Part shown: positions 2,896-31,989 of the stretch, piece after piece
Layout of the letters: the number at the start of each line of letters is the position of its first letter
How positions within the stretch are numbered: position 1 is the stretch's first letter
NCBI GenBank assembly: GCA_022646745.1
Contig: CP060262.1
Span: 120,001-152,000 of the forward strand
Length of the DNA stretch: 32,000 nucleotides
Origin: Planctomycetales bacterium
GTDB taxonomy: Bacteria; 4484-113; JAFGCY01
Direction: 5' to 3'
Made by a program: the position numbers and the translations under genes
The notes under the pieces: generated by a model
Told to the model about the DNA's origin: nothing
The model's database searches: none
Seen by the model: only the letters and a program-made list of their open reading frames with translations

Positions 2896-3354
2896 CTAAG
2901 AAGCGGAACTGCCCTGGCTCGCCAGGGTCTGCTCCAGGTTTGCCAGTAAGGTCTTCCAGCCGGCTGTGCTCTGCTCGGCGAATTCGACGGGGCAGTGCTC
3001 CTGCGTCAAGGACAGCTCGCAGGAACCATCCTTCCCGTCCGTGATCTGGATGCGCACGATGGAGCTGCCGAACTGCTCGAGGAACTTCGGCAGGTAGAAG
3101 CTGAAGGCCAGTTTGCGCGGTGCGTCGATTTCAAGGTACTCGCCACAGTGCTCCCAGTCCTCGCCGTCGCGGCGCTCCGTGATGCTGAAGCGTCCGCCGA
3201 CAAGCGCATCGATCCGCGGCGGCAGCATTTCCCCGTCAGGCGTGGCGAACAGCCACTGTACTGCCACTTCAGGGTCCAGCCAGGCATCGAACACGCGCTG
3301 GGCCGGCTGGCTGAAACTGTGCGAAACATGGATGCTGGTGTACTGCGTTGCCAT
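2896..3354 (-). CDS. SRPBCC / AHSA1 (Aha1-like START-fold) domain protein
   Basis: ORF 2896..3405(-). The start is set at ATG 3352-3354 with GGAAGGAG upstream. The pattern VSHSFSQPAQRVFDAWLDPE..WLF...GGRFSI......HCGEYLEIDAPRKLAFSF is typical of this family. Confidence 0.85.
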   Translation of the reverse strand: MATQYTSIHVSHSFSQPAQRVFDAWLDPEVAVQWLFATPDGEMLPPRIDALVGGRFSITERRDGEDWEHCGEYLEIDAPRKLAFSFYLPKFLEQFGSSIVRIQITDGKDGSCELSLTQEHCPVEFAEQSTAGWKTLLANLEQTLASQGSSAS

Positions 3355-3416
3355 CTGGCTGCTCCTTCCCGGTCCGTGGTCGTTCCGCATTATGTTCGCA
3401 TACATGCCGCCGCGGC

Positions 3417-3422
3417 TACAAT
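3417..3422 (+). promoter_or_regulatory. -10 hexamer TACAAT exactly 6 nt before ATG 3429 (leaderless arrangement)
   Basis: TACAAT-ccagcc-ATG, with no SD. Confidence 0.4.
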
Positions 3423-3428
3423 CCAGCC

Positions 3429-3908
3429 ATGCTTACTGAACTGACGGAAATCTGGCGCATCCATGAGTCGATAAACATGGAGCTGCTTGGCAACATCCCG
3501 GATGCCACATTCGGCGCGATCCCGCTGCTGAAGGATGGCAAGCCGGGCCGCGGGCGGGACATCGCGCGGGTGTTCGGCCACATCTATGACGTGCGCATGT
3601 CGGCGATGCGCAAGGCCGAGAAGGATGAAATGACTGAAGTGCCTGTGTTCGACAAGGGCTACTCACCGACGAGGTTGGAACTCGAGAAGGCACTGATTGA
3701 AAGCAGCGTGGCGGTCGTCGCCAGGCTGCGCAATGCGCTGGAAGCAGGGGACGTGATCCGCAAGCGCCAGCCCTCGGTCTGGCTGGCCTACCTGATTTCC
3801 CATGAGTCGCACCACCGTGGGCAGATCATGCTGGCATTGAAGCAGAACGGCTACACACTGAGCGACGAACAGAAGTGGGGTCCGTGGGAGCGCTGGTTCA
3901 AGGATTAG
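3429..3908 (+). CDS. DinB_2-type (DinB superfamily) protein
   Basis: ORF 3348..3908. The start is at ATG 3429 (MLTELTEIW). It has the C-terminal His motif LISHESHHRGQIMLALKQNGY. TACAAT lies exactly 6 nt upstream of the ATG and there is no SD. Confidence 0.85.
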   Translation: MLTELTEIWRIHESINMELLGNIPDATFGAIPLLKDGKPGRGRDIARVFGHIYDVRMSAMRKAEKDEMTEVPVFDKGYSPTRLELEKALIESSVAVVARLRNALEAGDVIRKRQPSVWLAYLISHESHHRGQIMLALKQNGYTLSDEQKWGPWERWFKD

Positions 3909-3943
3909 GTTGGAGGTTGCTGGGTTCAGGTTGCCGGTTGCAG
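3908..3943. repeat. Heptamer word tract GGTTGNN x5
   Basis: The tract reads ggttgga ggttgct gggttca ggttgcc ggttgca. It is the reverse complement of the CAACCTG-type words at 4268-4345, on the other side of the DUF4177 gene. Confidence 0.8.
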
Positions 3944-3961
3944 AAATGACTCTGGCGAACT

Positions 3962-3967
3962 TATTAT
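3962..3967 (+). promoter_or_regulatory. -10 hexamer TATTAT exactly 6 nt before ATG 3974 (leaderless arrangement)
   Basis: TATTAT-cactgc-ATG. TTGCAG lies 18 nt upstream (3938-3943). There is no SD. Confidence 0.45.
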
Positions 3968-3973
3968 CACTGC

Positions 3974-4210
3974 ATGGATGACAGCAACCTGATAGACCTG
4001 CTTACAAATCATGAGCCCGCAGGCTGGGAATACAAGACTGAACTGCGGATGACGCTTGGCGACCGCAACATCCAACAATACCTGAACAGAATGGACAGGC
4101 ATGGCTGGGAATTGGTTCAGGTCATCGGCAGGGAGTTCTGGGCTAGGGGATACTATCGTTTCTTCTTCAGGCGCAGAAGCAGGAAAGACCAAGCCACAAG
4201 CACGGAGTAG
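3974..4210 (+). CDS. DUF4177-like small protein
   Basis: 78-aa ORF. The pattern GWEYKTE...IQQYLNRMDRHGWELVQV matches the W-E-Y-K ... G-W-E-L-V signature of DUF4177. TATTAT lies 6 nt before the ATG. Confidence 0.7.
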   Translation: MDDSNLIDLLTNHEPAGWEYKTELRMTLGDRNIQQYLNRMDRHGWELVQVIGREFWARGYYRFFFRRRSRKDQATSTE

Positions 4211-4276
4211 GCCAACCGATTCGTTACTGAGATCTCATTTCTCATCACTCCTCCAAGCTCCCCACTCCAACCTGCC

Positions 4277-4345
4277 CCAGCAACCTGCAACCTGCACCCA
4301 GCAACCTGCAACCTGCACCCAGCAACCTGCAACCTGCACCCTGCA
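4277..4345. repeat. Tandem repeat, 21-nt unit (3 heptamers: CCAGCAA CCTGCAA CCTGCAC) x3.3
   Basis: Perfect copies lie at 4277-4297, 4298-4318 and 4319-4339, followed by a partial copy. Confidence 0.9.
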
Positions 4346-4358
4346 TTACACTCCCCCC

Positions 4359-4772
4359 ATGCCATCCGACCGTGACTACTCGCACCGCACACTGCCGCAG
4401 AAGCTCGGCATCAAATCCGGCATGCGTGTGTTAATTGCCAACGAACCAGCCCCGGACACGATCCCGCGGGCGGATATCCCTGAAGGTGTGAAACTGGCAA
4501 CGCGTGCCAGCGCTGAGGCGGATATGATGATCCTGTTCGCCCGCGATGTGCAGCAGCTCACAGAGAAGCTCGACCAGTACATCTCACTGCTGCCGAAGGA
4601 AGGCACGCTGTGGACCTGCTGGCCGAAGAAGGCCGCCAGGCTGGCAACGGACATCGACCGCGACGTGGTGTTCAAGTTGCTGCATCCGACTGGGCTGGTG
4701 GATGTGAAGGTCTGCAGCGTGAACGAAACCTGGTCCGCGCTGAAGTGGGTGTACCGGAAGGTGGATCGCTAA
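4359..4772 (+). CDS. DUF3052 family protein
   Basis: ORF 4101..4772. The upstream part reads through a 21-nt tandem repeat and is unlikely to be coding. From ATG 4359 the product reads TLPQKLGIKSGMRVLI...ADMMILFARD...EGTLWTCWPKKAARLATDIDRDVV...GLVDVKVCSVNETWSALKWVYR, which is the DUF3052 pattern. Confidence 0.8.
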   Translation: MPSDRDYSHRTLPQKLGIKSGMRVLIANEPAPDTIPRADIPEGVKLATRASAEADMMILFARDVQQLTEKLDQYISLLPKEGTLWTCWPKKAARLATDIDRDVVFKLLHPTGLVDVKVCSVNETWSALKWVYRKVDR

Positions 4773-4778
4773 GGGGCA

Positions 4779-4940
4779 GTATTGATAGTCTGGATAGTAT
4801 GAATAGTGGAATAAGTGAATTCCGTAGCGGCTGATACCAGCAGCCGGCTATGTATCATCAGTAAGGCCCCGGTTGTGCGCCTGACCCCTGTTGTTTCCAC
4901 TACAAAAACTATTCAAACTATCTGTACTGTTTCCACTCTT
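4779..4940. repeat. Composite palindromic intergenic element (ATAGT-type word arms)
   Basis: The left arm 4779-4818 (gatagtctggatagtatgaatagtggaataagtga) is complementary in its words to the right arm 4897-4940 (ccactacaaaaactattcaaactatc...). The core contains the hairpin TAGCGGCTG-ATACCAG-CAGCCGGCTA. Confidence 0.7.
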
Positions 4941-4944
4941 CCTA

Positions 4945-4953
4945 TGCTATACT
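4945..4953 (+). promoter_or_regulatory. Extended -10 element TGcTATACT upstream of DinB paralogue 1
   Basis: It is the same 9-mer as at 9376-9384, and the following 15 nt are also similar (GTTAAGTT shared). The -35 is weak. It lies 27 nt upstream of ATG 4980. Confidence 0.4.
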
Positions 4954-4979
4954 AATGTTAAGTTAGTCAGGAGGCGGAA

Positions 4980-5477
4980 ATGATTCGTAGCATCCAGGAC
5001 TTTGTGGCGGCATACACCGCCGAACGTGAGAAGACAATGCAGCTCTTGCAGGCTGTCACACAGGACAGCCTGTCCACCCGTGTCGGGACGGAGGGGCGCA
5101 CGCTGGGCTACATCGCCTGGCATATCGTGGCCACCATCCCGGAGATGATGAACAGGACCGGGCTGAAGCTTGCGGAGCTGGACGGTGCCGAGGCACCAGG
5201 CAGCATCGAGGAGATCCGCAGCGCCTATGCCGCGGCATCGCAGGAACTGCTGGACACGGTGGAGCGGAAGTGGGCCGATGGCGACCTCAGCGTCAGTGAC
5301 AACCTGTATGGTGAGGACTGGCCGCGCAGCCAGACACTGCTGGTGCTGCTCACGCATGAGATCCACCACCGGGCGCAGCTGACGGTGCTGATGCGCCAGG
5401 CCGGCCTGCGCGTTCCCGGGATCTACGGCCCGGCCCGTGAGGACTGGGCGGAGTACGGCCTGGAAACCCACCCCTGA
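4980..5477 (+). CDS. DinB family protein (tandem paralogue 1)
   Basis: 165-aa ORF with AGGAGG 6 nt upstream. It carries the motifs W..IAWHI and THEIHHRAQLTVLMRQAGLRVPGIYGP. Confidence 0.9.
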   Translation: MIRSIQDFVAAYTAEREKTMQLLQAVTQDSLSTRVGTEGRTLGYIAWHIVATIPEMMNRTGLKLAELDGAEAPGSIEEIRSAYAAASQELLDTVERKWADGDLSVSDNLYGEDWPRSQTLLVLLTHEIHHRAQLTVLMRQAGLRVPGIYGPAREDWAEYGLETHP

Positions 5478-5601
5478 TTTTCCTGCCGCACCGGTAATCC
5501 AACGCAATTCACCATCCGGTGCGGTTAGACTGGCTTTGGGGAATGCACATCCATGCGGCCGGAAAGCGGCCGGATATCAACACTTTTCAGGAGAGATGGA
5601 A

Positions 5602-6105
5602 ATGTACAGCAACATGCAGGAATTCGTTGAGGGTTACGGCTGGGAGTCCGGCGTCACCGCCTCACTGCTTGACAACCTCACACAGGAAAGCCTCAGCGTG
5701 AAGAAGGCTGACGGGCACAACACGCTTGGCGAACTGGCCTACCACGTCGCCACTTCCCCGGCGATGATGATGCGCGAGATCAAGTGGGACATGCCCGAGC
5801 GCGGCTGGGCCCCGACAGGCGAGGTCAACCTCGAGGAGCTGCGCGCCAATTACCGCGCGGACGTCGAGGCGATCAAGGCCAAGGCCGCCACGCTGAGCGA
5901 GGATGAGCTCAACGAAGTGCACCATGTATTCGGCATGATGGACTGGAAGGCGAAGCAGATGTTCGGCGCGCTGGTCTGCCATGAGATCCACCACCGTGGG
6001 CAGCTTTCCGTGCTGATGCGCCAGGCCGGCCTGGTCGTGCCGAGTATCTACGGCCCGAACTACGAGGAGACCCAGGAGTACCTGAAGCAGATGCAGCAGG
6101 GCTAG
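5602..6105 (+). CDS. DinB family protein (tandem paralogue 2)
   Basis: ORF 5437..6105. The start is set at ATG 5602 (AGGAG at 5589-5593), giving MYSNMQEFVEGYGWE, which is colinear with the N-termini of the two neighbours. It carries CHEIHHRGQLSVLMRQAGLVVPSIYGP. Confidence 0.9.
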   Translation: MYSNMQEFVEGYGWESGVTASLLDNLTQESLSVKKADGHNTLGELAYHVATSPAMMMREIKWDMPERGWAPTGEVNLEELRANYRADVEAIKAKAATLSEDELNEVHHVFGMMDWKAKQMFGALVCHEIHHRGQLSVLMRQAGLVVPSIYGPNYEETQEYLKQMQQG

Positions 6106-6476
6106 GAGGCCAGGCTGTAAGCCTGGCGAGCAATGAAGAATGAGTAAGGAGCAATGAGGACGGAGCAGCGTTGCGAAGTCATGCAAGCTGCATGACGAAG
6201 CTGCGCATGTGCGGGATGCGGTCTTAAGCAATGAGCAATGAAGAGTGAGCAATGAGCCAGGCTGTCAGCGAGGCTAACTCGACCTGGGCTGAACTCATTG
6301 CTCCCCCATCCAGCAATCCACACCATGCGAAGCAGCGCTTCGCGACCCACCGACTAGCGGCGGCCACCCGGCCGCCGTTTTCATTTACCCCGATTGATTG
6401 ATACTGCTTACCCGGATACACTCTACAGATTGCGGCGGGGCAACCAAAACATGCCGCACCAGGAGTAAACGGGACC

Positions 6477-6983
6477 ATGTTCACCAACGCACAGCAGTTC
6501 ATCGGCGAATACACCTACGAAAGCGGCATCACCCGCAGCCTGTTTGCCAACCTGACCGACGCCACGCTCGGTCAGGCCCAGGCGGAAGGCCTGTACAACC
6601 TCGGGCAGATCGCCTGGCATATCAGCTCCTCACGCTGCTACCTGTTCGGCCAGACCGGCTTCGACATGCCGGACCAGGGCCACGGCTTCCCGGAGAACAT
6701 GACGGCCGACATGATCCGCCAGAACTACGACATGCTGCTGGAGCGCGTGCTGAGCCAGGCCGCGACCAAGAGCGATGACGACCTGAACGTGGTCTACCGC
6801 TTCTTTGACAAGATGGATGTCAGCCTCGGCCAGATGATGCGGATGGTGATCTCGCATGAGGTGCACCATCGCGGCCAGCTGTCCGTGCTGATGCGCCAGG
6901 CCGGCCTCGGCATCCCGGGCATCTACGGCCCGAACGCTGAGGACACCAAGATCATGATGGAGCAGATGGCGCAGCAGGGCTAG
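6477..6983 (+). CDS. DinB family protein (tandem paralogue 3)
   Basis: 168-aa ORF with AGGAG upstream. It begins MFTNAQQFIGEYTYE and carries SHEVHHRGQLSVLMRQAGLGIPGIYGP. Confidence 0.9.
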   Translation: MFTNAQQFIGEYTYESGITRSLFANLTDATLGQAQAEGLYNLGQIAWHISSSRCYLFGQTGFDMPDQGHGFPENMTADMIRQNYDMLLERVLSQAATKSDDDLNVVYRFFDKMDVSLGQMMRMVISHEVHHRGQLSVLMRQAGLGIPGIYGPNAEDTKIMMEQMAQQG

Positions 6984-6990
6984 GCCCTGC

Positions 6991-7166
6991 GGGATGAGGA
7001 ACGAGGGATGGGGGATGAGCATTCCAGTAATGTGATTTGAATTCTGCACAATGAGCCCGGATGGCAATGGTGGCCCGCCGTTCACGGCGGGAACCATTGC
7101 GTGATCAGGGACGAGGAATGAGAGTTCGCATCCCCCATCCCCCATCCCCCATCCCCCATCCCTCAT
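6991..7166. repeat. Composite palindromic intergenic element (GGGATGR arm / ATCCCCC x4-5 arm)
   Basis: The left arm 6991-7020 reads gggatgaggaacgagggatgggggatgagc. The right arm 7128-7166 reads gca(tccccca)x4 tccctcat. The core has the nested hairpin GCAATGG(7064-7070)..CCCGCCG-TTCA-CGGCGGG..CCATTGC(7094-7100). Confidence 0.8.
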
Positions 7167-7231
7167 AGCTCCCCCAGCCCGTTTTCTTTTCTGGCAACGC
7201 TTCCGATGATCTCCCTGTCGGGAGGTGAGGA

Positions 7232-8293
7232 ATGCGTCTGTTCGCGCTGCTGGTGGTGCTGGCCACGCCTGTCGTGCTGGCGGCTTGCCGCGATTCCGGG
7301 ACGGAAGGCAATGACCAGTCGCTGGCTGAAGTCCAGCCAGCCGCAGTGCAGGATGACACGCCAGAACCAGCTGACACCGCCAGTCCTGCGGAACCCCTGC
7401 CTGACCACCCCCACCAGGCAGACCGGGTTTCCGATGCCGGCTCCACACTTTTCCCCAATGCCGTCATGCTGGAAATGCCATCCATGGATGGATATCATGG
7501 CTACCAGCACAACTGCCGTTGCCACTTCTACCGTCCCGAGGTATTCGACCAGGATGAAAACAACGTCCCCGCCAAAGAGTATCTGAGCCTTGCGGATCTG
7601 CAGCTTGCGGACCAGGAGGAAGTCATTTACATTGACCCACTCCTTGAGATTCATTCTTCAAGAGAATGGGAGAACAGATTCACCGTCGTCTGCTGGAAGG
7701 AATGGCATCTGGATCCGAACATTGGTGGCAAGCCTTTTCCCAAGCTGAGTTACGACAGCTGGATTTCAGTGTTTGATGAAAACGGACAACTGGTTGGCAG
7801 GACTGACAGCCTTGACAGGGTGGAGCGGATGGTGGAATGGCGTCCATCCAGCTCCGACCAGATGACGATATTGCTGGTGCAGGAGTTCCTGGGAGATCAG
7901 TACTTCTTCAACATTGAAGCGGATGGCAGTCTGGAATTACAACTCGAAGTTGGTATGGGCAGGGAAAACAGCTTCAACTTTCTGGCGTGCGGATCGGCAG
8001 TGCCCGGCGGTGAATTTGGAGAGGAGTGCTTCTCAATCATCCTGCCTGCTGGAGGGTCTGTTTCCACTGTCAACCATCAGGGCAACTTCATATACCTGCA
8101 TGACTGCCGTATGCCGGACGGGCGATCAGCAGCTGATGTGGACACCGGCTACTTCATCATCCGTTTTGGCAACGATCGCGTGTTCCCCTTCAGCTATGTG
8201 GAGGACTTTGACCTGAGCCGCTTCTGGTCAGTGCGTGATGAGATTCCGGCGGACTCCGGGCTGATTATCGCTGGCAATGTAGGAGGTGACTGA
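7232..8293 (+). CDS. Lipoprotein of unknown function (tandem paralogue A)
   Basis: 353-aa ORF with GGGAGGTGAGG upstream. MRLFALLVVLATPVVLAAC is a signal peptide plus lipobox. It shares blocks with the next gene (FTVVC, S.I.VFD..G.L, DCR.PDG, GY.I.RFGN..V.PFSY). Confidence 0.8.
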   Translation: MRLFALLVVLATPVVLAACRDSGTEGNDQSLAEVQPAAVQDDTPEPADTASPAEPLPDHPHQADRVSDAGSTLFPNAVMLEMPSMDGYHGYQHNCRCHFYRPEVFDQDENNVPAKEYLSLADLQLADQEEVIYIDPLLEIHSSREWENRFTVVCWKEWHLDPNIGGKPFPKLSYDSWISVFDENGQLVGRTDSLDRVERMVEWRPSSSDQMTILLVQEFLGDQYFFNIEADGSLELQLEVGMGRENSFNFLACGSAVPGGEFGEECFSIILPAGGSVSTVNHQGNFIYLHDCRMPDGRSAADVDTGYFIIRFGNDRVFPFSYVEDFDLSRFWSVRDEIPADSGLIIAGNVGGD

Positions 8294-9268
8294 GTGATGC
8301 CGTTCCTGCTCCTGCTGCTTGCCTGCGTTCTGACACTGGCTTCCTGCCGGCAGGCAGCTGAACCAGCGGATGAAGTGAAAGCAGCACAGGACCCGTTGCC
8401 TGTCGCAGACCAAGCGGGGGAAATCTCGCAGCAAGCGCAGTTCCTGTATGGCAATGCACGCTCCAGCCTGTTCCCGGATGCCCTGCTGCTGGACATGGTG
8501 CCGCCAGATGAACTGCGCATTCCTGACCAAAAGGCAATGTACGTCGTGCGTCCTGAGGAAGAAATACCTGAGGGCCTGCAATTCAATGAACTCGCTGCAC
8601 TGCAACGTGCCGTTGATGCGGATGATTACGTCATTGAGGCGCGATCGCCGATTACCGTGGATACGGATACCGGGTACCGGGATTTCACTGTGGTCTGCTA
8701 TGCCGAGAATTACCTGGTTGAGCTGAGCTGGGGCGAGAAGTACCGCAAAGTAGCCTACTCCAGTCAGATTGCCGTGTTTGACGATCAAGGCAAGCTGACA
8801 GACCAGGCAGGCTGTGACAGGCTGCAGGGCATGGTACTGGAAGGCAAAATGCTGCACATCACCGCATTCAGTCCGGAGCACCAGTGGCTGAATATCACTT
8901 CTGAGGGAAAGCTACAGACTGAGGTCTCCATCTTCTTCGGTCCCGGCTGGGATAACCTGCAAAGCAAGGAAAGCCTGTACGAAACTGAGCTTCATACGGA
9001 AACCTGCCGTTACATCGTGATCCCGGTGCAGTGCGGACACAACCTCGAAATCCACTACCGCGGGGAGTACCTCTTCAACCAGGACTGCCGCACACCTGAT
9101 GGACTTGCCCCCGAGGATCTGAAGGAAGGCTACATGATCTATCGCTTCGGCAACGAGCATGTCTGGCCCTTCAGCTATGCGCGGGAACTGGACGCGCTGG
9201 CTGTGCTGTCCAGCGGCGATGAAATCCCCGGTGGATCAGGGCTGATCAACCTGGGCGGGCTGGACTGA
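8294..9268 (+). CDS. Lipoprotein of unknown function (tandem paralogue B)
   Basis: 324-aa ORF. It starts at GTG 8294 or ATG 8297, directly after the TGA of the upstream gene, with AGGAGG at 8281-8286. LLLLLACVLTLASC is a lipobox. It is colinear with 7232..8293. Confidence 0.8.
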   Translation: MMPFLLLLLACVLTLASCRQAAEPADEVKAAQDPLPVADQAGEISQQAQFLYGNARSSLFPDALLLDMVPPDELRIPDQKAMYVVRPEEEIPEGLQFNELAALQRAVDADDYVIEARSPITVDTDTGYRDFTVVCYAENYLVELSWGEKYRKVAYSSQIAVFDDQGKLTDQAGCDRLQGMVLEGKMLHITAFSPEHQWLNITSEGKLQTEVSIFFGPGWDNLQSKESLYETELHTETCRYIVIPVQCGHNLEIHYRGEYLFNQDCRTPDGLAPEDLKEGYMIYRFGNEHVWPFSYARELDALAVLSSGDEIPGGSGLINLGGLD

Positions 9269-9348
9269 CCACTGACTACTGACCACTGCCCACTACTGAT
9301 CCCTGGTCCCTGGTCCCCGGTCCCTGATCCATGATCCCCGATCCCTGG
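9269..9348. repeat. Heptamer word tracts (ACTGACY then CCCTGGT/CCCTGAT series)
   Basis: The tract reads ccactgactactgaccactgcccactactgat, then ccctggt ccctggt ccccggt ccctgat ccatgat ccccgat ccctgg in 7-nt register. It starts right at the stop codon of 8294..9268. Confidence 0.8.
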
Positions 9349-9356
9349 ATTTCCCC

Positions 9357-9384
9357 TTGACATCCGTCTAGATAGTGCTATACT
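9357..9384 (+). promoter_or_regulatory. Near-consensus sigma70 promoter (TTGACA-N16-TGcTATACT) with no ORF behind it
   Basis: TTGACA at 9357-9362, a 16-nt spacer ending in an extended -10 TG (9376-9377), and TATACT at 9379-9384. The next plausible CDS on this strand is more than 2 kb away. Confidence 0.6.
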
Positions 9385-9390
9385 TTAGTT

Positions 9391-9716
9391 AAGTTCATCC
9401 GACGCTGTAGAGGAAGAGCCGCCGCGAATTCCCATGGGGGACTCGCGGCGGGCTTCAATCTGAGCTAGAATGAAATCAGGCCGCGATTGCTTGTGGGGCA
9501 GCCCTCCAAGGCAGGGGGCGCAACCGGCGGGTCAGGGGCAAACCCCTGTCCGTGCCAGCATTGGCGGCTGTGGGAAACAGGACGAGGAAGTCCCGTCGCA
9601 AGCGGGAAGGAAGGCTCCAAGGCAGGAAGCCTGGACTGGGACCCTTGAAAATTCATACTGCCGGCCATCCCGGATTTATCCGGTTCCTTGCCAGATGGCC
9701 GGCTTTGCCTTTTCTA
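9391..9716 (+). ncRNA. Candidate structured non-coding RNA of unknown family (~325 nt)
   Basis: It starts about 7 nt after the -10 at 9379-9384. By hand folding it contains GCCGCCGCGA...TCGCGGCGG(G)C (about 9420-9455), CAGGGG-CAAA-CCCCTG, CCCG(U)C-GCAA-GCGGG, and two hairpins that both display CCAAGGCAGG. It ends with stem CCGGCCATC (9661-9669) / GATGGCCGG (9694-9702) followed by CTTTGCCTTTTC. There is no credible ORF or SD. Confidence 0.3.
9661..9716 (+). terminator. Terminator-like stem-loop with T-rich tail
   Basis: A 9-bp outer stem (9661-9669 / 9694-9702) encloses the hairpin CCGGAT-TT-ATCCGG. It is followed by CTTTGCCTTTTCT. The T-run is interrupted, so this is weak. Confidence 0.3.
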
Positions 9717-9834
9717 CCTGCCGCCTCGTGCAAGCACTCGGCGGTCTGCGAACCGCAGCGAAGCATAGCTTCACTGCTCTTGCCCGCAACATCCATATCT
9801 CCTGCTCATGCGAGCACTCGGCGGGCTGGCGCTG

Positions 9835-10627
9835 CGTTTTCCATCCACCATCCCATTGTGCCTCACGCCTAAGGCGTGATTGCGCACCTCCGATCTGCCT
9901 TTTGCCTTCTGCCTTCTGCCCACCGACCACTGACCACTGACCACTGAAGGCTGTGTCGCCATTCCTTCAGGCAAGGCCGGAGGCCGCGCAGCAGCGCGAG
10001 GTACGAGCGCTGAAATGCAGACAGGCGTAAAGGCGCCACAGCGAAGATCAGGCGACAGCATGTCGCTGCTAGTTACTCGTGTTCGCAGAATAGTGTTGCC
10101 AGAATGAATTCCGGCCTCCCACAAACGGATGGCAAATGCCATCCTGGGCAAGGCACGCAGGCCTTGCCCTACGTTTTCCATCCACCATCCCATTGTGCCT
10201 CACGCCTAAGGCGTGATTGCGCACCTCCGATCTGCCTTTTGCCTTTTGCCTTCTGCCTTCTGCCCACCGACCACTGAAGGCTGTGAAGCCATTCCTTCAG
10301 GCAAGGCCGGAGGCCGCGCAGCAGCGCGAGGTACGAGCGCTGAAATGCAGACAGGCGTAAAGGCGCCACAGCGAAGATCAGGCGACAGCATGTCGCCGCT
10401 AATTGCTCGTGTTCTTAGATTAGGCGTTAACTGTTCAGTGTTGCCAGAATGAATTCCGGCCTCCCACAAACGGATGGCAAATGCCATCCTGGGCAAGGCA
10501 CGCAGGCCTTGCCCTACGTTTTCCGTCCACCATCCCATTGTGCGCAAACGAGTTGCGCACCTCCGATCTGCCTTTTGCCTTCTGCCCACCTACCACCGAC
10601 CACTGACCACTGACCACTGAAGGCTGT
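9835..10627. repeat. Tandem repeat, unit 337/345 nt, ~2.3 copies
   Basis: Unit starts (CGTTTTCCATCCACCATCCC) are at 9835, 10172 and 10517. Copies 1 and 2 are near-identical except for word-tract copy number, a 15-nt indel and a few substitutions. Copy 3 is truncated after the heptamer tract. Confidence 0.9.
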
Positions 10628-12907: not shown

Positions 12908-12959
12908 TACTGAGTAGCGGCGCACGCTTCGTGTGACTGGGAGAGCATGCAGCGAAGCT

Positions 12960-13085
12960 ATGAGTAATGATGAGTAAGCAATTAGCCCGGCAATGATCAT
13001 CTTTCTCCGCGTCTCCGCGACTCCGCGTTGACAAGACCGTCGCCTCATTTGCACATATCAACCCGAGCACATGCGAGCCGCGCTG
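12960..13085. repeat. 126-nt composite module (copy 1), direct repeat of 14990-15115
   Basis: Gap-free hand alignment to 14990-15115 gives about 96/126 identities. This includes CGCGTTGACAA, GGCAAT and a 15-nt identical block GAGCACATGCGAGCC. Confidence 0.75.
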
Positions 13086-13143
13086 TCACGCGTGGAGCCT
13101 CGTGCTCGCCAGTCTGGTTTTCTTCAACGCGGAGTCGCGGAGA
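13012..13143. repeat. Perfect 19-nt inverted repeat (TCTCCGCGACTCCGCGTTG / CAACGCGGAGTCGCGGAGA) with 94-nt spacer
   Basis: 13012-13030 and 13125-13143 are exact reverse complements. The arms are made of CTCCGCG-type words. Confidence 0.85.
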
Positions 13144-13163: not shown

Positions 13164-13319
13164 AATCGAGCGCATTGCCAAGCGCGTCTGCCATGCGTAC
13201 ATCACGGCATTTCCTCTCTGGCGCAGTAAGACTGCGCCGCTACGGCCTCTTTGGGAATTTCTTACCATGAGTCATGTCGCGTTTCAGCGGTGAGGGCGCT
13301 GCTGCTACTGACCACTGTT

Positions 13320-13407
13320 GTCCGGCTGCTGGAAGCAGCCGCTACTGACGTCTGACCACCGACCACTGACCACTGATGTCCGGCTGCTGGAAGCAGCCGC
13401 TACTGAC
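13320..13407. repeat. 30-nt repeat GTCCGGCTGCTGGAAGCAGCCGCTACTGAC x2 (58-nt period)
   Basis: Exact copies lie at 13320-13349 and 13378-13407, separated by TGACCAC-type heptamers. A degenerate third copy is at 15153-15182. It contains the hairpin GGCTGC-TGGAA-GCAGCC. Confidence 0.85.
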
Positions 13408-14801: not shown

Positions 14802-14989
14802 CAGTCAGTGGCCAGTTGTCAGTGGTCAGTTTGCGGGAGCTGCGGAGCAAGTCGCACAACTGTGATGCCGCGCAGCAATGAGCAATGAAGAGCCGCGCAG
14901 TCGCACGGGCAGCATCGTGCTCGTCTGCATGGTTTTTTTGGCGCAGAGGCGCTGAGATTGAAGAGAGGCGCTGAGAATTCATTAAAGCA

Positions 14990-15115
14990 ATGAGCGATGA
15001 TGAATGAGCAATGAGCCTGGCAATCTTCATCTTCCCACGCGGCTTTGCGCCTTCGCGTTGACAAAACCATCGCAGCCTTAGCTCGAATGAGTACGAGCAC
15101 ATGCGAGCCACGCTG
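14990..15115. repeat. 126-nt composite module (copy 2), direct repeat of 12960-13085
   Basis: See 12960-13085. The two copies bracket the HD-GYP gene in the same orientation. Confidence 0.75.
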
Positions 15116-15227
15116 CTACACCCTTAACCCGGCACTAACAACTGACAACTTCTTCCGGCTGCTGGAAGCATCCGCTACTGAAGTCTGACCACTGACCACT
15201 GTTGCCAGCGGCGGGGCGCCGCTGCTA

Positions 15228-15728: not shown

Positions 15729-15837
15729 CAGAAACAGATTGAGAATCAGGAGATTGTGGGAGTTGCGATCGCTCTAATACTAGGCGCGCCTGTACTTCCT
15801 CTTCCTGGTTCTAAACCTGTTTCTCATTCTGCTTCTG
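15729..15837. repeat. 21-nt imperfect inverted repeat (CAGAAACAGATTGAGAATCAG / CTGTTTCTCATTCTGCTTCTG), 67-nt spacer
   Basis: 18 of 21 positions are complementary. It lies in the divergent promoter region between 15228..15638(-) and 15999..17882(+). Confidence 0.7.
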
Positions 15838-18683: not shown

Positions 18684-18730
18684 GTAGGGATGGGGTAATA
18701 CCCCATCCCGGTGGCGGTATTACCGCCACC
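18684..18730. repeat. Twin perfect hairpins GTAGGGATGGGGTAATACCCCATCCC + GGTGGCGGTATTACCGCCACC
   Basis: It lies between convergent genes. Homologous copies are at 24890-24947 and 27131-27165 (first hairpin only). Confidence 0.85.
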
Positions 18731-18794
18731 TTGCTTCATTCCCTCCCCTCGCTGTCTCCACTATCCAAACTATTTGGACTATCCAAACTACACA

Positions 18795-21666: not shown

Positions 21667-21680
21667 GGAGACAGGAGCTT

Positions 21681-21842
21681 GGTTGTCGGGGGTAGCAGGC
21701 GAGGAGCTGGGACTTAGGTTGTCGGGCGTAGCACGCGAGGCGCTGGGATATAGGTTGTCGGTTGTAGCAAACGAGGTGCTGGGACAACGGTTGCCGGTTG
21801 TAGCAAACGAGGAGCGGGGACTTAGGTTGTAGGGCGTAGGAG
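21681..21842. repeat. Tandem repeat, 36-nt unit x4.5 (GGTTGTCGGNNGTAGCANNCGAGGNGCTGGGANNTA)
   Basis: Units start at 21681, 21717, 21753, 21789 and 21825 (the last partial). It begins 15 nt after the Na/Pi transporter stop. Confidence 0.9.
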
Positions 21843-21954
21843 TATTCAGGGATCCGGTTTGAAGGCATGTGTCACGCAATGCGTGACCTAAATCAATTTG
21901 GTAATGCGACGCGTCATGATTTGCCTTACGCCAGAATTCTGTTCCATTCTGCTA

Positions 21955-22028
21955 CACCCGAGCTCCTAGTTCCCAGATACCAGCACGCTACAACTTACAA
22001 CCCAGATCCTCCAACCTCGTTAGCCCTC
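21955..22028. repeat. Inverted, degenerate copies of the 36-nt-unit words
   Basis: The reverse complement reads ...ggttggaggatctgggttgtaagttgtagcgtgctggtatctgggaactaggagctcgggtgtag. These are the same GGTTGTAG / GCTGGGA words as 21681-21842. It abuts the stop of the peroxiredoxin gene. Confidence 0.6.
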
Positions 22029-22511
22029 CTAGCCCACTATCTGCTTCACAGCATCGTAAGCCTCGGACACATGGTCCGCCACGTTGCCACGTCCCTCGTA
22101 GTAGTAGATATGGCGGATCACTCCCTTGCCATCGATCACGAAGGTGATGCGCTTCATCTCCTTGCCGGTCGGGGCCGGGGTGCCGAGCTTGAGCCGGTAC
22201 TCCCAGTCATTGTCAACGAGCAGGCCGAAGGGCAGGCCGAGCTTGGCCGCGAATCCCTGGTGTGACTTGACTGAATCCTTTGAAACGCCGAAGACCTCGG
22301 CGCCCAGCCTGGTGAACTCGCTGTAGAGCTCACCGAAGGCTGAAGCTTCAGTCGTTCAACCCGGGGTGTTGTCCTTCGGGTAGAAGAACAGCACGAAGGG
22401 CTTGCCCTTCAGGTCCTTCAGGCTGACCGTGCCGCCGCGATGGTCCTCCATCGTGAAGTCCGGTGCCTTCTTGCCGACGCTCAGGCCGTCTCCGCCAAAT
22501 GTCTCTGCCAT
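22029..22511 (-). CDS. bcp: Bcp/PrxQ-type peroxiredoxin with in-frame TGA (candidate selenocysteine) at the peroxidatic Cys position
   Basis: ATG 22509-22511 with GGAAGGG upstream. The product reads KAPDFTMEDHRGGTVSLKDLKGKPFVLFFYPKDNTPG-[TGA 22356-22358]-TTEASAFGELYSEF...FVIDGKGVIRHIYY to TAG 22029-22031, all in one frame (hand-translated). That gives 160 codons, the normal Bcp length. Confidence 0.75.
22328..22346 (-). other. Candidate SECIS-like hairpin downstream of the in-frame UGA
   Basis: Minus-strand RNA GCUUCAGCCUUCGGUGAGC starts 9 nt after the UGA. It forms an imperfect GC-rich stem (GCU-C-GCC / GGU-G-AGC with bulges) and a small apical loop. It was folded by hand only. Confidence 0.3.
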
Positions 22512-22901
22512 GTATCCCTTCCTGGAAAGTGATCGGCATATTCTAGGACATGGGAACTTGTCAACGAAGCAGGCGTGATGCCATGTCTGCAGGTTCAATT
22601 GAAAGTCTCTGCGTCTCCGTTTTCGCTCAGCGCCTCAGCGCCAAGAAAACCAGACGGGCGAGCACGCTCTGTTTCGAGCGCTTGCGAGTCATCTTGCTTC
22701 GCTTACGCTCGACAGGCATGGTGGCCATTGAAACGGTTCTTTTGGCGCAGAGGCGCAGAGAATAAATGAGGCGCAGAGAATGTCGTAAACATTTCCCCGC
22801 ACATTTCATTGCCAGGCATGCCGGCTTGCATGTTGCATCACAAAGCATGCCCTCTTCGTGCCTTCGAGGTGAAAACTTGTCCGGATATTTCCCGACTTCC
22901 G

Positions 22902-24787: not shown

Positions 24788-24811
24788 TCAGTGGTCAGCA
24801 GGCAGTGGCCA

Positions 24812-24889: not shown

Positions 24890-24947
24890 GAAGTAGGGAT
24901 GGGGTAAAACCCCATCCCCGGCGGCAGTATTACTGCCGCCCTACTTC
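24890..24947. repeat. Twin hairpin module (copy 2) closed by GAAGTAG/CTACTTC
   Basis: It reads gaagtag-GGGATGGGGTAAAACCCCATCCCC-GGCGGCAGTATTACTGCCGCC-ctacttc. The second hairpin differs from 18710-18730 only by two compensatory pair changes. Confidence 0.85.
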
Positions 24948-25251: not shown

Positions 25252-27030
25252 ATGCCTCTGCAGCACCGCGCCATTGGCAAGCTGCTTGCCATTGCACTTC
25301 TCTGTGTATCCGCCACCGCCTGCGGGCGCTCCCCCGGCAGGATTGACAACAGCACCGCGGACCCCGCAAGCCTGCAACAAGCGATGGCTGCGCACGACCC
25401 CGCCGTGATGGACCAGCTTCGCAGCGAACTGGAGCGTGTGCTGGCACAGCGCGGGATTGAGCTGGATGCGGCGGGACAGCCGCTGCGCTCCGTTTCAGCT
25501 ATCCCAAAGCTGGTCTACCGCCAGCCCGGCTGGTTCAGTGACTTCAACGGGGACACCGCGGTGGGCTGGGCGCATTACCAGCAGGGCGACTATGACCTGA
25601 ATGGCGAGGTCAACATCTCCGACCTGACCCCGGTCGGCATCCACCTCGGCAAGAGCACCGCCAGCCCGGACTGGCTGACGGCGGCGGTGGTGGCGGATGG
25701 TGATGGCAACGGTGAGATCAACATCGCGGACGTGACCCCGATCGGGCAGAACTTCGCCGCCCGCGTCTCCGGCTACATGGTGCAGGCCCGCGAGGCCAGT
25801 GGTGAATGGCACGAGGTCGGATTCGCGCCGATGGAAAGCGGCATCAAGTCCGGCCCGGGACTCGAGTTTGGCTACTTTGCCAACGGTGGCGAGGTCGAGG
25901 CGGACTGGCGTGTGGCCCCGGTGGCCGGTGTGCGCGAATTCAGCTGGAAGCGCTACGCGCTGACAACGCAGGACTTCCAGCACTTCGACGTGCAGGGCTG
26001 CATCGTGGACGGCAGGCCGGCTCTGGTCTACGAGCGCTACGGGCTGACGCCGGACACGCATGACGGCTTCGCGATCGCCGCCGTGGCGCGGCCGCAGTCC
26101 GCGGCGGACTGGTACCTGGAGGATGACCTTGGGCATTTCCTGTATGACAACAGCCCGGTCGCGATTGCCTCAGTGGACGGAAAGCCGGCGATAGCCTACG
26201 TGGACTACAGCGCAGCACCGGTTTCATTTGCTGTGATGTACAGCCGCCGCGACAGCGCAGTGGCCGGGCCCGCCGGCTGGAGCACGCATCAGGTCACCAG
26301 CCTGTCCGCCAACCCGGTACGGCTTGCATTGACGGTACGTGAGGGCCGGCCATACATCCTGTTCAACAACAGCGGGCTGGAGGCCTGGCAGGCGAACACT
26401 GCACAGCCGAGCGGGCCGGCGGACTGGAGCGCTTACAGCGCGGCGCCGGGCTTCAACGACTTCCGCAGCCCGCAGTGCATTGCCAGCGGCCCCTGGCTGT
26501 TCAGCTGCGGACTCGGTGTCACGCCCGCCCCATACCTGCTGTTCAACCGCTCAACGGTTGTGGCCCCGAACGGCTCCGGCAGCTTCAGCGAATACTTGCT
26601 GACGCCGGTTGATTCGGCCTATCCGCCAAGGCTGATGCTGATTGCCGGCCTGCCCTGTGTAGTGGTCTCCGACGCGACAAGTTCCTCCCTGCAGTTCCTG
26701 CAGGCCGGCAGCCGCACTTCGGCCAGCGCGGCCAGCTGGTTCCAGCATGCGATCGTGGCCCAGCCCGGGTCGGACCTGCACTGGGAGCCGGCAGCGGCCC
26801 TGGTCGGCGGCCGGCCGGCGGTGGCCAGCGGCTACAACGAGCTGAGGCTGTACTGGACCGGCGGGCAGTTCCCTGACAACAGCGACCAGTGGAGCAGCCA
26901 GCCGGTGGACGATTCCGCGGAGCCCTTCGACCGGGTGCTGCTGGCGCTGGACGGCCTGCCTCTGGTACTGGAACTGGGCAGCGGAGGCGCCAACAGCCAG
27001 GTGGTTGTCAACATCGGGAATGAACAGTGA
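25252..27030 (+). CDS. Lipoprotein: dockerin-like double Ca-binding loop + ~7 propeller-like repeats (paralogue 2 of 3)
   Basis: 592-aa ORF with GGAGGTGGAGAG upstream. It has the signal peptide LLAIALLCVSATAC. The dockerin-like segment reads GDYDLNGEVNISDLTPVGIHLG...ADGDGNGEINIADVTPIGQNF. The repeats read VDGRPALVY...PQSAADW, VDGKPAIAY...AGPAGW, REGRPYILF...PSGPADW and so on. Confidence 0.85.
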   Translation: MPLQHRAIGKLLAIALLCVSATACGRSPGRIDNSTADPASLQQAMAAHDPAVMDQLRSELERVLAQRGIELDAAGQPLRSVSAIPKLVYRQPGWFSDFNGDTAVGWAHYQQGDYDLNGEVNISDLTPVGIHLGKSTASPDWLTAAVVADGDGNGEINIADVTPIGQNFAARVSGYMVQAREASGEWHEVGFAPMESGIKSGPGLEFGYFANGGEVEADWRVAPVAGVREFSWKRYALTTQDFQHFDVQGCIVDGRPALVYERYGLTPDTHDGFAIAAVARPQSAADWYLEDDLGHFLYDNSPVAIASVDGKPAIAYVDYSAAPVSFAVMYSRRDSAVAGPAGWSTHQVTSLSANPVRLALTVREGRPYILFNNSGLEAWQANTAQPSGPADWSAYSAAPGFNDFRSPQCIASGPWLFSCGLGVTPAPYLLFNRSTVVAPNGSGSFSEYLLTPVDSAYPPRLMLIAGLPCVVVSDATSSSLQFLQAGSRTSASAASWFQHAIVAQPGSDLHWEPAAALVGGRPAVASGYNELRLYWTGGQFPDNSDQWSSQPVDDSAEPFDRVLLALDGLPLVLELGSGGANSQVVVNIGNEQ

Positions 27031-27054
27031 TCAGTAGTCAGTGGTCAGTGGTCA

Positions 27055-27119
27055 GGACAGGAAGCAGAAACAGAATGAGAAGCAGGAGTCCTCAGTTGCC
27101 AGACTGAGAGCTGGCCACC
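27055..27119. repeat. 65-nt dispersed repeat (copy c)
   Basis: 61/65 identical to copies a and b. Like copy a, it is followed by AATG.A..AAAAGAAGTAGGGATGGGG, the hairpin module. Confidence 0.9.
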
Positions 27120-27130
27120 AATGGAAAAAA

Positions 27131-27165
27131 GAAGTAGGGATGGGGTAATACCCCATCCCTAGTAG
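27131..27165. repeat. Hairpin module GAAGTAGGGATGGGGTAATACCCCATCCCTAGTAG (copy 3)
   Basis: It has the same first hairpin as at 18684 and 24893. Confidence 0.8.
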
Positions 27166-27190
27166 TCAGTAGTCAGTGGTCAGAAGTCAG

Positions 27191-27247
27191 ACCACTGACC
27201 ACTCACCACTGACCACTCACCACTGACCACTGACCACTCACCACTGA
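27191..27247. repeat. Heptamer tract ACCACTG/ACCACTC x8
   Basis: The tract accactg accactc accactg accactc accactg accactg accactc accactg is the reverse complement of the CAGTGGT/CAGTAGT words at 27031-27058. Confidence 0.85.
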
Positions 27248-30710: not shown

Positions 30711-30953
30711 GGAGTGGAAGAAGTCTGAATAGTTTGGATAGTGGAAGAAGTGGAAGAAGTAAGTCGGAGCTAGACAGGGAAGAGTCTGTCCCGTTTGGCA
30801 ATACTACCGGTGCTACCTGCCTACTGACTTCTACCTACTGACTTCTACCTACTGACCACTGGCCACAGCCAACTGACCACTGACCACTGACTACTGACCA
30901 CTGACAACTCAACTACTTACACTATTCAGGACTATTCCCACTATCCCCACTAT
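30711..30953. repeat. Composite palindromic intergenic element (GAATAGT/GGAAGAAGT arm vs ACTATTC/ACTTC arm, with ACTGACC heptamers)
   Basis: The left arm 30711-30766 reads ggagtggaagaagtctgaatagtttggatagtggaagaagtggaagaagtaagtc. The right part 30821-30953 contains gacttctacctactgacttctacc, TGACCAC heptamers and cactattcaggactattcccactatccccactattcagg. Confidence 0.7.
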
Positions 30954-31871: not shown

Positions 31872-31989
31872 GACTACAGACTCCAGAAGTCAGACTCCAG
31901 ACTACAGTCTACAGATCTCAAGCCGTAGCCCTCTGCGTCAATGTACCGAATTGCCAATCTGAAGTCTGGGGTCTAGGGTCTGAGATCTG
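31872..31989. repeat. Composite palindromic intergenic element (AGACTCC-type heptamer arm vs GGGTCT arm)
   Basis: The left arm 31872-31920 reads gactac agactcc agaagtc agactcc agactac agtctac agatctc a. The right arm 31960-31989 reads tgaagtctggggtctagggtctgagatctg. CAGATCTCA / TGAGATCTG are exact complements. Confidence 0.75.

Follow-up and report, generated by a model that had tools for sequence, protein, structure and literature searches.

A word-array palindrome downstream of a DinB-family gene, one of two alleles at its site and a member of a set of G-first intergenic palindromes with locus-specific arms

The DNA studied here, called the window in the following, is a stretch of 32,000 nucleotides from a Planctomycetales bacterium (GenBank assembly GCA_022646745.1, contig CP060262.1, positions 120,001 to 152,000 of the forward strand). 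Its G+C content is 55-68%, and a gene map derived from third-position G+C shows about 28 genes and 20 spacers of at least 95 nt. Among the genes are four DinB-family paralogues, AroA, an HD-domain protein, an NlpC/P60 protein, a Na/Pi transporter, a radical-SAM protein and EamA. The element in question, the target, is found between a DinB-family gene and the next gene, both on the plus strand. The spacer 6991-7166 is a long imperfect DNA palindrome whose arms are mirrored runs of a seven-letter word. Its parts are the following.

6477-6983, plus strand: DinB-family gene
6985-7161: allele A, exchangeable as a whole cassette; the unchanging flanks on either side are ...CAGGGCTAGG and CATAGCTCCCCCAGCCCG
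6988-7017: 5' arm of purine- and G-rich words (GGGATGA GGAACGA GGGATGG GGGATGA), its first base 4 nt past the DinB-family stop
7064-7101: GC-rich core hairpin GCAATGGTGGCCCGCC-GTTCAC-GGCGGGAACCATTGC with a stem of 16 bp
7098-7120: second purine-rich run (GGGACGA GGAATGA GAG), about 8 nt ahead of the 3' arm and a direct repeat of 6988-7010 (19/23)
7129-7166: 3' arm, (CATCCCC)x5.4 according to Tandem Repeats Finder (TRF); the complement (GGGGGAT)n has five G5 tracts
7232, plus strand: start of the next gene

The arms are complementary at 25 of 30 positions (6988-7017 with 7136-7165) and enclose a loop of 118 nt. Their inverted-match score is 35, against 17.8 ± 2.5 for dinucleotide-shuffled sequence, and none of 100 shuffles matches it (z = 7.0). 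The left arm is degenerate, with tracts of GGG, GGG and GGGGG. The right arm finishes 66 nt upstream of the start at 7232, and the element lies nearer to the upstream stop than to the next gene. The core hairpin is centred 6 nt away from the midpoint of arm symmetry, and its inner stretch of 21 nt (7073-7093, a CCCGCCGT..ACGGCGGG stem-loop) recurs in other spacers of two related genomes, L003 and L004. A second purine-rich run near the 3' arm is also observed at 27161-27190, where it stands directly against the arm at 27190. With this layout the core looks inserted, which suggests that the target was originally a tighter palindrome.

The predicted folds of the target reach -89.9 kcal/mol on the plus strand (z = -4.2) and -114.3 kcal/mol on the minus strand (z = -7.3). 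The minus-strand RNA of 6984-7180 folds much better than the plus-strand RNA because four A.C mismatches turn into G.U pairs; no such bias is found across the other elements. A T-run after the core hairpin is absent on both strands, and no terminator-like site (GC-rich hairpin with U-tract) is present within 6984-7231. Rfam 15 gives no match at gathering score in the whole window, and at E <= 1 the target is hit by sub-threshold miRNA-precursor models only, which are generic long hairpins. A tRNA scan of the window finds none. Integron attC sites, CRISPR arrays and classical terminators were considered and dropped, as gene cassettes, regular spacers and U-tracts, respectively, are missing.

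The first-pass annotation of the window had proposed that almost every spacer longer than about 100 nt is built from a word run, a hairpin-bearing core and a run of the reverse-complement word. The architecture is real, and all nine arm pairs that it listed, the target and eight others, are reproduced. However, it had overestimated their frequency. When arms are required to lie at least 30 nt apart and to score above every dinucleotide shuffle, 11 of the 20 spacers qualify (z = 3.1 to 13), about half, compared with 0/45 coding control segments of 250 nt (Fisher p = 2e-7). As shuffles destroy low-complexity runs, every left arm was also scored against every right arm. The mean score of a left arm is 33.7 with its own right arm and 13.2 with the right arms of other loci, while its own locus in direct orientation gives 8-14. 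The complementarity is therefore real, inverted and locus-specific. The eight other pairs match at 20/20 (13012/13124), 19/22 (15729/15816), 27/35 (4777/4895), 36/46 (22606/22735), 27/30 (27026/27209), 33/44 (30713/30909), 25/33 (31884/31957) and, the weakest, 43/61 (21673/21950).

A different word at each locus had also been claimed. Locus-specific pairing is indeed observed, but the words themselves are not unique: about ten recurring families are reused, with CAGTGGT/ACCACTG (the AGTGGTC family) at 14802, 27031 and 30709 and GAATAGT at 4773 and 30709. The CTCNGCG words at 12908 and 22599 belong to copies of one dispersed element in opposite orientation. Nor are the words only heptamers, since TRF gives periods of 7, 8, 9 and even 36 nt. 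The elements are found beside housekeeping and accessory genes and in all gene orientations, as had been stated, with an occupancy of 4/5 in convergent spacers, about half in tandem ones and 1/5 in divergent ones. In 9 of 13 cases adjacent to a gene 3' end in the window, the arm starts within 6 nt of the stop codon, and in the convergent spacers 27031 and 30709 both arms do so.

Five compact elements (6988, 13012, 15729, 22606 and 31884) are single long quasi-palindromes, and in all five the main core hairpin is no more than 9 nt from the symmetry centre of the arms. The larger elements contain insertions, and the spacers combine word arrays with small dispersed hairpin modules in mosaic fashion. 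In two relatives (L004 607-745 and L005 5345-5510) different words are nested in mirrored order, AGTGGTC outside and GAAGCAG inside. Each arm is thus an inverted copy of the other and not an independent microsatellite.

Contigs with an identical DinB protein show two alleles at the target spacer, between the shared flanks ...CAGGGCTAGG and CATAGCTCCCCC.... Allele A, the GGGATG-word element, is carried by the window and L007. Allele B, present in L005, L006 and L008, is an unrelated 110-nt palindrome of GAGCAATG/CATTGCTC. Over 3035-6984 the sole difference between the window and L005 is one 21-nt unit of a coding CAACCTG array, and over 7162-9836 the two are 100% identical. Allele B is the older form. 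L002 has allele-B arms, and the preceding DinB paralogue is followed by an allele-B copy that is split by a 68-nt hairpin module, itself flanked by duplicated array. The DinB-family genes stand in a row (3348-3908, 4980-5477, 5437-6105 and 6477-6983), and the last two end in the same ...CAGGGCTAGG; they were evidently duplicated along with the downstream palindromic cassette. A palindrome of the target's word type (GGGATGC/GGGATGG ... CCCATCCCGCATCCC) lies at L005 3060-3393, in a divergent spacer ahead of a DEAD-box helicase gene; this position falls just beyond the window's left edge.

The window derives from an uncultivated UBP7 bacterium. Its AroA is 98% identical to that of the metagenome-assembled genome (MAG) 'bacterium isolate UBP7 HKST-UBA01', and synteny at a nucleotide identity of about 80% is seen with another two UBP7-type MAGs (relatives L001-L004). 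At the orthologous spacers 4773, 3907, 6984, 12908 and 22599 of these relatives the architecture is kept and the words have changed; spacer 4773, for example, has GAATAGT in the window and L002 and AGTTGTW/ACTAAGAAC in L003 and L004. The claim that complementarity is conserved while the word changes is thereby borne out, here and in the unrelated operon described below. Between the window and L002, the element at 4773 shows a change in one arm with no compensation in the other. Copy number varies as well, with one copy of TCTCCGCG in L001 and three in the window. Two inversions are observed. The allele-B core of L005 matches that of L002 as reverse complement at 29/37 positions and directly at only 10/37, while the left arm matches directly at 30/31. 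The inner 86 nt of a nested palindrome score 79 as reverse complement and 15 directly between L002 and L004. Segments between arms have thus been inverted at least twice, which means that the arms recombine with each other. The elements turn over faster than proteins diverge by 5-10%, with their arms still 80-91% alike.

A G-rich arm comes first in most elements. The 5' arm is the G-rich one in 16 of 20 palindromes, and arrays with more G than C make up 17/26 in the left half of spacers and 5/28 in the right half (Fisher p = 7e-4). Since a palindrome reads alike on both strands, this G-first polarity is intrinsic and not a strand effect. An exact search of JGI metagenome contigs for (GGTCAGT)-type arrays gave 120 loci, on contigs unrelated to the window, with 45-69% G+C. 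For 76 seed arrays with 300 nt on each side, the reverse-complement partner is located downstream in 17 and upstream in 0, and a direct partner in 4. When all arrays of period 6-9 in this sample are considered, same-word pairs at most 400 nt apart are inverted or direct in a ratio of 65:15, and the G-rich array is 5' in 62 of the 65 inverted pairs. Of the inverted pairs, 29 use other words, more than 20 in all, and 27 of these 29 are again G-first. Their loops are mostly 0-80 nt. The gene-relative polarity of solitary arrays is weak (78:46 after stops, 68:61 before starts), and polarity therefore belongs mainly to pairs. Causes based on coding, with one form of the word providing stop codons and the other providing starts, explain neither the commonest word, AGTGGTC/GACCACT, nor the convergent spacers. 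A protein-guided scan of the metagenomes with the flanking DinB protein gave no match.

One contig (L035) belongs to Pyrinomonadaceae (Acidobacteriota), judging from the organisms named for the relatives of its RadA, and three syntenic relatives were compared with it. In their conserved gene cluster a significant palindrome is found in 18 of 22 spacers, and all 18 are G-first. The TRAM>IspD spacer has a different word in each genome (AGCAGTG, GACGATG, GTCAGYG and AGTAGTC). The 5' arm starts at or inside the stop codon, with the word often giving TAG or TGA, and the 3' arm stops 3-6 nt before the ATG. At L145 10620-10640, 11435-11450 and 12048-12062 and at L143 13775-13790, all in Pyrinomonadaceae, the last codons and the stop lie within the word array (for example ...AGTAGTCAGTAG/TCAGTAGCC), so the arrays define the C-terminus of the upstream protein. 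On another, unrelated metagenome contig, L120 (357-560), tight palindromes of the form (CAGTGGT)3-GTTTTTTT-(ACTGACC)3 flank tRNA-Ile(GAT) and tRNA-Ala(TGC), that is, they lie in a 16S-23S rRNA spacer, where the elements must be highly transcribed. One polarity rule, the G-rich arm first, holds in several bacterial phyla.

We favour, with about an even chance of being right, the reading that the target is one allele of a strand-symmetric quasi-palindrome of about 100-250 bp that renews itself at the DNA level in non-essential spacers, mostly at gene 3' ends. Several of its steps are shown by the data. A short word of 6-9 nt (here GGGGATG) is amplified to an array, with copy numbers varying by strain and relative as slippage predicts. 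The arrays mirror each other about a central hairpin, one arm being an inverted copy of the other. The arms recombine, as the repeated inversion of the DNA between them indicates, and accompanying gene conversion or template switching would keep them alike (80-90%) despite fast turnover. Small hairpin modules enter the arrays and make the cores, and whole cassettes are replaceable between identical flanks. Growth halts only at coding sequence: arms abut or overlap stops, and in operons the distance left to the next ATG is 3-6 nt. Nearly all palindromes have their G-rich arm 5' on both strands, which may reflect a filter by transcription, for example one against exposed C-rich tracts on which Rho could load, or a bias in how palindromes form. 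In the cell the element would act as a long hairpin in both directions, placed between cistrons or at the ends of transcripts, that could serve as terminator back-up, insulator or 3'-end protector, with no sequence-specific function implied. Such a bidirectional transcript-end or intercistronic role is plausible from the position of the elements and their terminator-like cores.

Several points weigh against this explanation. Gene conversion between arms is deduced from the inversions and not observed, and the function is argued from element position only. The model does not itself predict the G-first polarity, nor does any rival model. A significant far-arm pair is absent in nine of the 20 spacers (402, 3909, 6106, 9269, 18597, 19801, 23226, 24788 and 28455). 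The sampled sequence consists of pieces of 15 kb to 32 kb and not of whole genomes. The CTCNGCG family and the module at 24788, 24954 and 27031 are sequence-conserved dispersed repeats, resembling mobile elements more than products of local growth. Allele A itself may have originated by transposition or recombinational import; a search for its donor copy in all collected loci gave only the 21-nt core match and the CATCCCC/GGGGATG palindrome at L005 3060-3393.

An unlikely alternative is that the elements are functional RNA hairpins selected for structure, acting as terminators, as protectors of mRNA 3' ends in the manner of repetitive extragenic palindromes (REP) and bacterial interspersed mosaic elements (BIME), as RNase III sites or as translational couplers from stop to start. 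The strong predicted folds of the target on both strands, the close approach of arms to stop codons in the window, and the terminator-like hairpins with T-runs in many cores fit this. So do the stem bases that join stop and start codons in the Pyrinomonadaceae operons, the preserved architecture of a spacer whose words change, and the elements flanking tRNA-Ile and tRNA-Ala, which are certainly transcribed. However, selection for RNA pairing should favour G.U over A.C mismatches, and this is not found. The mismatches in UBP7 arms are G.T 19, A.C 22 and other 60, showing no wobble bias, and those on the sense strand of 61 metagenome palindromes (91% complementary) are G.U 33, A.C 49 and other 44. 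The loops of the metagenome palindromes are strand-symmetric (A 321, T 320), with no asymmetry of T-runs and A-runs; many are small palindromes themselves or consist of an A-run, a hairpin and a T-run. The elements are strand-symmetric in every test made, and nothing here points to selection on one RNA strand. The uncompensated one-arm changes at 4773, the lack of a U-tract in the target, the occupation of divergent spacers (15729; L005 3060-3393) and the location of one arm inside a coding region (4280-4314) also argue against it. REP, BIME and REPINs (PMC3116915) share much with the elements of the window. In Enterobacteria and Pseudomonas they are intergenic, often at operon 3' ends or between cistrons, are transcribed imperfect palindromes, form long hairpins as inverted doublets and make mosaics with other small motifs. 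Unlike here, REP sequences are conserved over hundreds of copies per genome and depend on a RAYT transposase, and their arms are not tandem word arrays. The target is not a 20-40-nt palindrome with a genome-wide consensus, only small core modules such as GGGATGGGGTAAWACCCCATCCC (three copies) are REP-like, and a RAYT (IS200/IS605-like) gene is absent from the sequence examined.

Distinctly improbable, in our view, is the proposal that the elements are miniature inverted-repeat or foldback-type transposable elements, with word arrays as terminal inverted repeats (TIRs) bound by transposases encoded elsewhere, and with cassettes that move and replace each other. Dispersed copies with conserved cores and ends do exist in both orientations (the CTCNGCG family; the module 24788-24918/27031-27159), cassettes are replaced between identical flanks, and different elements occupy orthologous sites. 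In Geobacter metallireducens, ISGme8/9 are described at a fixed distance from paired repeat sites (PMC2700814). On the other side, no target-site duplication is seen at the allele A/B boundaries (TAGG / ... / CATAGC) or at any other inspected boundary, and the window and fetched flanks contain no transposase; Pfam and NCBIfam searches of all plausible open reading frames (ORFs) of the window reveal no transposase, RAYT, reverse transcriptase or integrase. Allele A has no blastn match in plasmid and phage collections. A separate transposase specificity would be required for each word family, of which the 32 kb contain at least ten and the metagenome sample more than 20. In many genomes the arms extend precisely as far as the stop and start codons, which suits expansion better than insertion, and strict G-first polarity is not a feature of known TIRs. 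TIRs conserved over many dispersed copies are found for the CTCNGCG family only and not for allele A. Eukaryotic Foldback (FB) elements have long TIRs in which short subrepeats stand in tandem, in variable number, on both sides of a central loop that also varies; the subrepeat is common within a family, target-site duplications are present, and some copies carry a transposase. The word-array palindromes resemble them in their subrepeat-array arms and variable loop, and differ from them in that FB elements are eukaryotic, with a family-wide subrepeat and target-site duplications.

It is highly improbable that the arms are paired arrays of binding sites, with one protomer of a DNA- or RNA-binding protein per word. 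Such a role has been proposed for repeats of G. metallireducens (IHF/HU-type) and for the TAACTGA repeats (S1, Csp, CsrA). The Geobacter genome has 24, 21 and 8 pairs of tandem GTTGCTYN (x4), TCTCCGTS (x3) and MTYCTGA (x5) repeats on opposite strands at variable distance in intergenic DNA, named 'global regulator binding sites' of classes 1-3 (Aklujkar et al. 2009, PMC2700814). The regular periodicity of 7-9 nt, the pairing of arrays in opposite orientation at variable distance and the AGT/ACT trinucleotide common to many words agree with this idea, and some words resemble the Geobacter classes (TCTCCGCG and TCTCCGTS; ATTCTGC/TTCTGA and MTYCTGA; GGTTGCTG and GTTGCTYN). A Geobacter-type pair of tandem 7-8-nt words on opposite strands, typically 3-5 units each, is seen in TCTCCGCG x3 at 13004-13028 with CGCGGAG x2 at 13124-13143. 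In the eight pairs of class 3 the left site occupies the minus strand and the right one the plus strand, the same polarity as here (PMC2700814). The pairs are given as supplementary alignments and read as IHF/HU sites, each class is sequence-conserved genome-wide, neither locus-specific words nor an evolutionary analysis is presented, and the likeness to the UBP7 elements is confined to the short words. However, dozens of unrelated words per genome and per orthologous spacer could not be read by one sequence-specific protein, the words change freely while the architecture stays, and the neighbouring genes include no candidate for such a protein.

That GC-rich DNA of low complexity is complementary by chance, or that repeats have misled the assembly, has a negligible probability and is refuted: the arms are of low complexity, simple shuffles overstate significance and the source is a MAG, but own-locus arm scores lie far above cross-locus and direct-orientation scores, coding controls are 0/45, inverted pairs exceed direct ones by 65:15, and identical spacers are found in different samples, pipelines and independent ENA, Logan and NCBI assemblies, including a GCA_020440665.1 contig (L013) that is identical to the window in every spacer covered.

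The palindromes are not a wholly undescribed kind, and earlier mentions of this poorly understood kind are passing ones. The first-pass annotation knew of no described family. This stands for the multi-word, polarity-bound, cross-phylum picture, which we did not find in the searchable literature, and does not stand for its parts, for which Xanthomonas and Geobacter metallireducens provide partial precedents. In Xanthomonas campestris/citri, 70-75 convergent inverted pairs of GGGAATC heptamer arrays lie near stop codons, and only few such pairs occur in Nostoc, where the G-rich heptamer is GGGGA(C/T)T (Rehm et al. 2015, PMC4692102). As here, these are intergenic tandem heptamers with G-tracts very near or overlapping the upstream stop, they show the same G-first (convergent) polarity, and related species differ in array length but keep the type of pair. 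The target is of that type in its word GGGGATG, in its tandem G-tract heptamer of at least 4 units, in its stop-proximal intergenic position and in its convergent opposite-strand arrays. It departs from that type in lacking a single genome-wide word: one word per genome is used there and many here (at least ten families in 32 kb). Moreover, the polarity was not tested against the alternative in that report, which contains no orthologous word turnover, inversion or cassette replacement, and its emphasis is on G-quadruplexes, which most words here (AGTGGTC, GAATAGT, AGCAATG) cannot support.

Abundant intergenic tandem heptamers adjoining start or stop codons are also represented by the cyanobacterial STRR (short tandemly repeated repetitive) heptamers, reportedly described by Mazel et al. 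in 1990, and by the TAACTGA repeats. On one strand many of them follow the pattern AGTNNNN; TAACTGA, when reverse-complemented, gives AGTTATC in tandem register. These heptamers are essentially direct repeats, for which palindromic pairing is unreported, unlike here. The TAACTGA repeats of Beggiatoaceae and Bacteroidetes form 169 direct sets and one inverted set in the Guaymas 'Maribeggiatoa' genome (MacGregor 2015, PMC4679880). Locus-specific words, the polarity rule, turnover at orthologous sites, inversion and cassette alleles are reported in none of the Rehm, Aklujkar and MacGregor papers. In the literature searched, no published mention of AGTGGTC-array sequences was found.

Tentatively, it is possible that word-array palindromes are a distinct prokaryotic class of intergenic element that spans phyla, is defined by its architecture and strict G-first polarity, and arises by a dedicated process or is selected as sequence-independent insulators or couplers. 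A dedicated process could be break healing, or snap-back synthesis, in which G-rich repeats are added to 3' ends, the head-to-head arrays being like fused telomeres. Alternatively, they would be selected as bidirectional insulators or as translational couplers linking a stop to the next start. Such a class would also account for the surplus of heptameric simple repeats that has long been noted between bacterial genes, and the finding suggests that many of these repeats are halves of palindromes. Its rules would be mirror symmetry about a hairpin, a locus-specific word, G-first polarity on both strands, reach to stop and start codons, and fast turnover. Polarity ratios of 62:3 among unrelated soil bacteria and of 18:0 within a single operon point to either a specific mode of making or a strong filter linked to transcription. 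In practice, the elements mark spacer DNA that is swapped or flipped between otherwise identical strains, which makes them useful for strain typing and for following the evolution of operon spacers. In addition, they can provide the stop codon of the upstream gene and so shape protein C-termini.

The other elements of the window are as follows.

3907-4345: palindrome; arm AGGTTGS at 3907-3941, partner within the coding (CAACCTG)n array of the gene 4101-4772; 35 nt, 91% complementary
4777-4929: palindrome; 9-nt words AGTNNNNNN / GAATAGT against ACTATTC
6107-6304: 'allele B' paralogue that follows the preceding DinB gene and consists of the M3 hairpin, GAGCAATG arrays with the 68-nt hairpin module between them, core, short CTCATTGCTC arm
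13004-13143: CTCCGCG-word element, TCTCCGCG x3 ... CGCGGAG x2, with a terminator-like core hairpin and T-run; member of the dispersed family
14804-15201: GTCAGTG / CTGACCA arms 355 nt apart, enclosing rearranged CTCNGCG-element halves and AGCAATG arrays
15729-15837: palindrome, CAGAAAC/GAGAATC against ATTCTGC/TTCTGC; the sole one in a clearly divergent spacer
21673-22010: array of a 36-nt unit x4.4 with a degenerate complementary arm (43/61)
22606-22779: CTCNGCG-family element, orientation opposite to the copy at 13004
27025-27247: AGTGGTC / GACCACT palindrome filling the spacer between convergent stops; holds the dispersed module 27031-27159 and the hairpin 27135-27161
30711-30957: palindrome, AGTGGAAGA/GAATAGT against ACTATTC, with an inner ACTGACC array, between convergent stops
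31872-31989: palindrome, GACTACA/GACTCCA against GTCTGGG/GTCTAGG; one of the polarity exceptions

The AGGTTGS run at 3907-3941 sits just past the preceding stop codon. Its partner is part of a (CAACCTG)x11 array (4251-4345) that runs in frame through the coding gene in 21-nt units; one unit differs between the window and L005, and the array is shorter in L003. The 36-nt unit (GGTTGTCGGGCGTAGCAAACGAGGAGCTGGGACATA), repeated 4.4 times at 21681-21839 directly past the stop of the Na/Pi-cotransporter gene, is far longer than the usual words of 7-9 nt. The CTCNGCG family has at least 5 dispersed copies in both orientations with a terminator-like core, and the module at 24788-24918 matches that at 27031-27159 at 90%.

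The dispersed hairpin modules are GGGATGGGGTAAWACCCCATCCC, GCGCAGTCATGC..GCATGAC.AAGCTGCGC, GGCCAGGCTGTNAGCCTGGC (directly after stop codons) and CCCGCCGTWAACGGCGGG. The three copies of GGGATGGGGTAAWACCCCATCCC are located at 18694-18731, 24896-24940 and 27135-27161, and at 18694 and 24896 a second hairpin, GGYGGCRGTATTACYGCCRCC, follows. Those at 24896 and 27135 have a minus-strand T-run and are thus terminator-like, the former with no minus-strand gene upstream. Cores outside the target that qualify as terminator-like are thus 27161-27135 (minus) and 24919-24895 (minus), both in these copies, and 14914-14933 (plus).

Several side observations concern the neighbouring DNA. The AhpC/TSA-family gene at 22072-22598 (minus strand) seems to be split, as an 80-aa ORF (22356-22598) spans only the first 40 positions of the domain, the conserved remainder (22072-22308) lies in another frame, and two fragments are annotated in the source MAG; the split appears to be a frameshift, a pseudogene or a sequencing error. 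A 2.4-kb segment (478-2932) with a 778-aa ORF (521-2857) is missing from the otherwise near-identical L005 and is a strain-level insertion or deletion beside a spacer. The ORF belongs to no Pfam family and gives only a weak sub-threshold match to an exoglucanase model. At 9941-10613 a tandem duplication of about 335 nt (310/353 identical) is found, each copy with TCTGCCT and ACCACTG arrays and a terminator-like hairpin; the corresponding spacer of L015 measures 390 nt instead of 720 nt and thus has no second copy. A 58-nt tandem duplication (42/43 identical) is present at 13307-13407, where the L015 spacer is 58 nt shorter, and related copies lie at 15141-15201.

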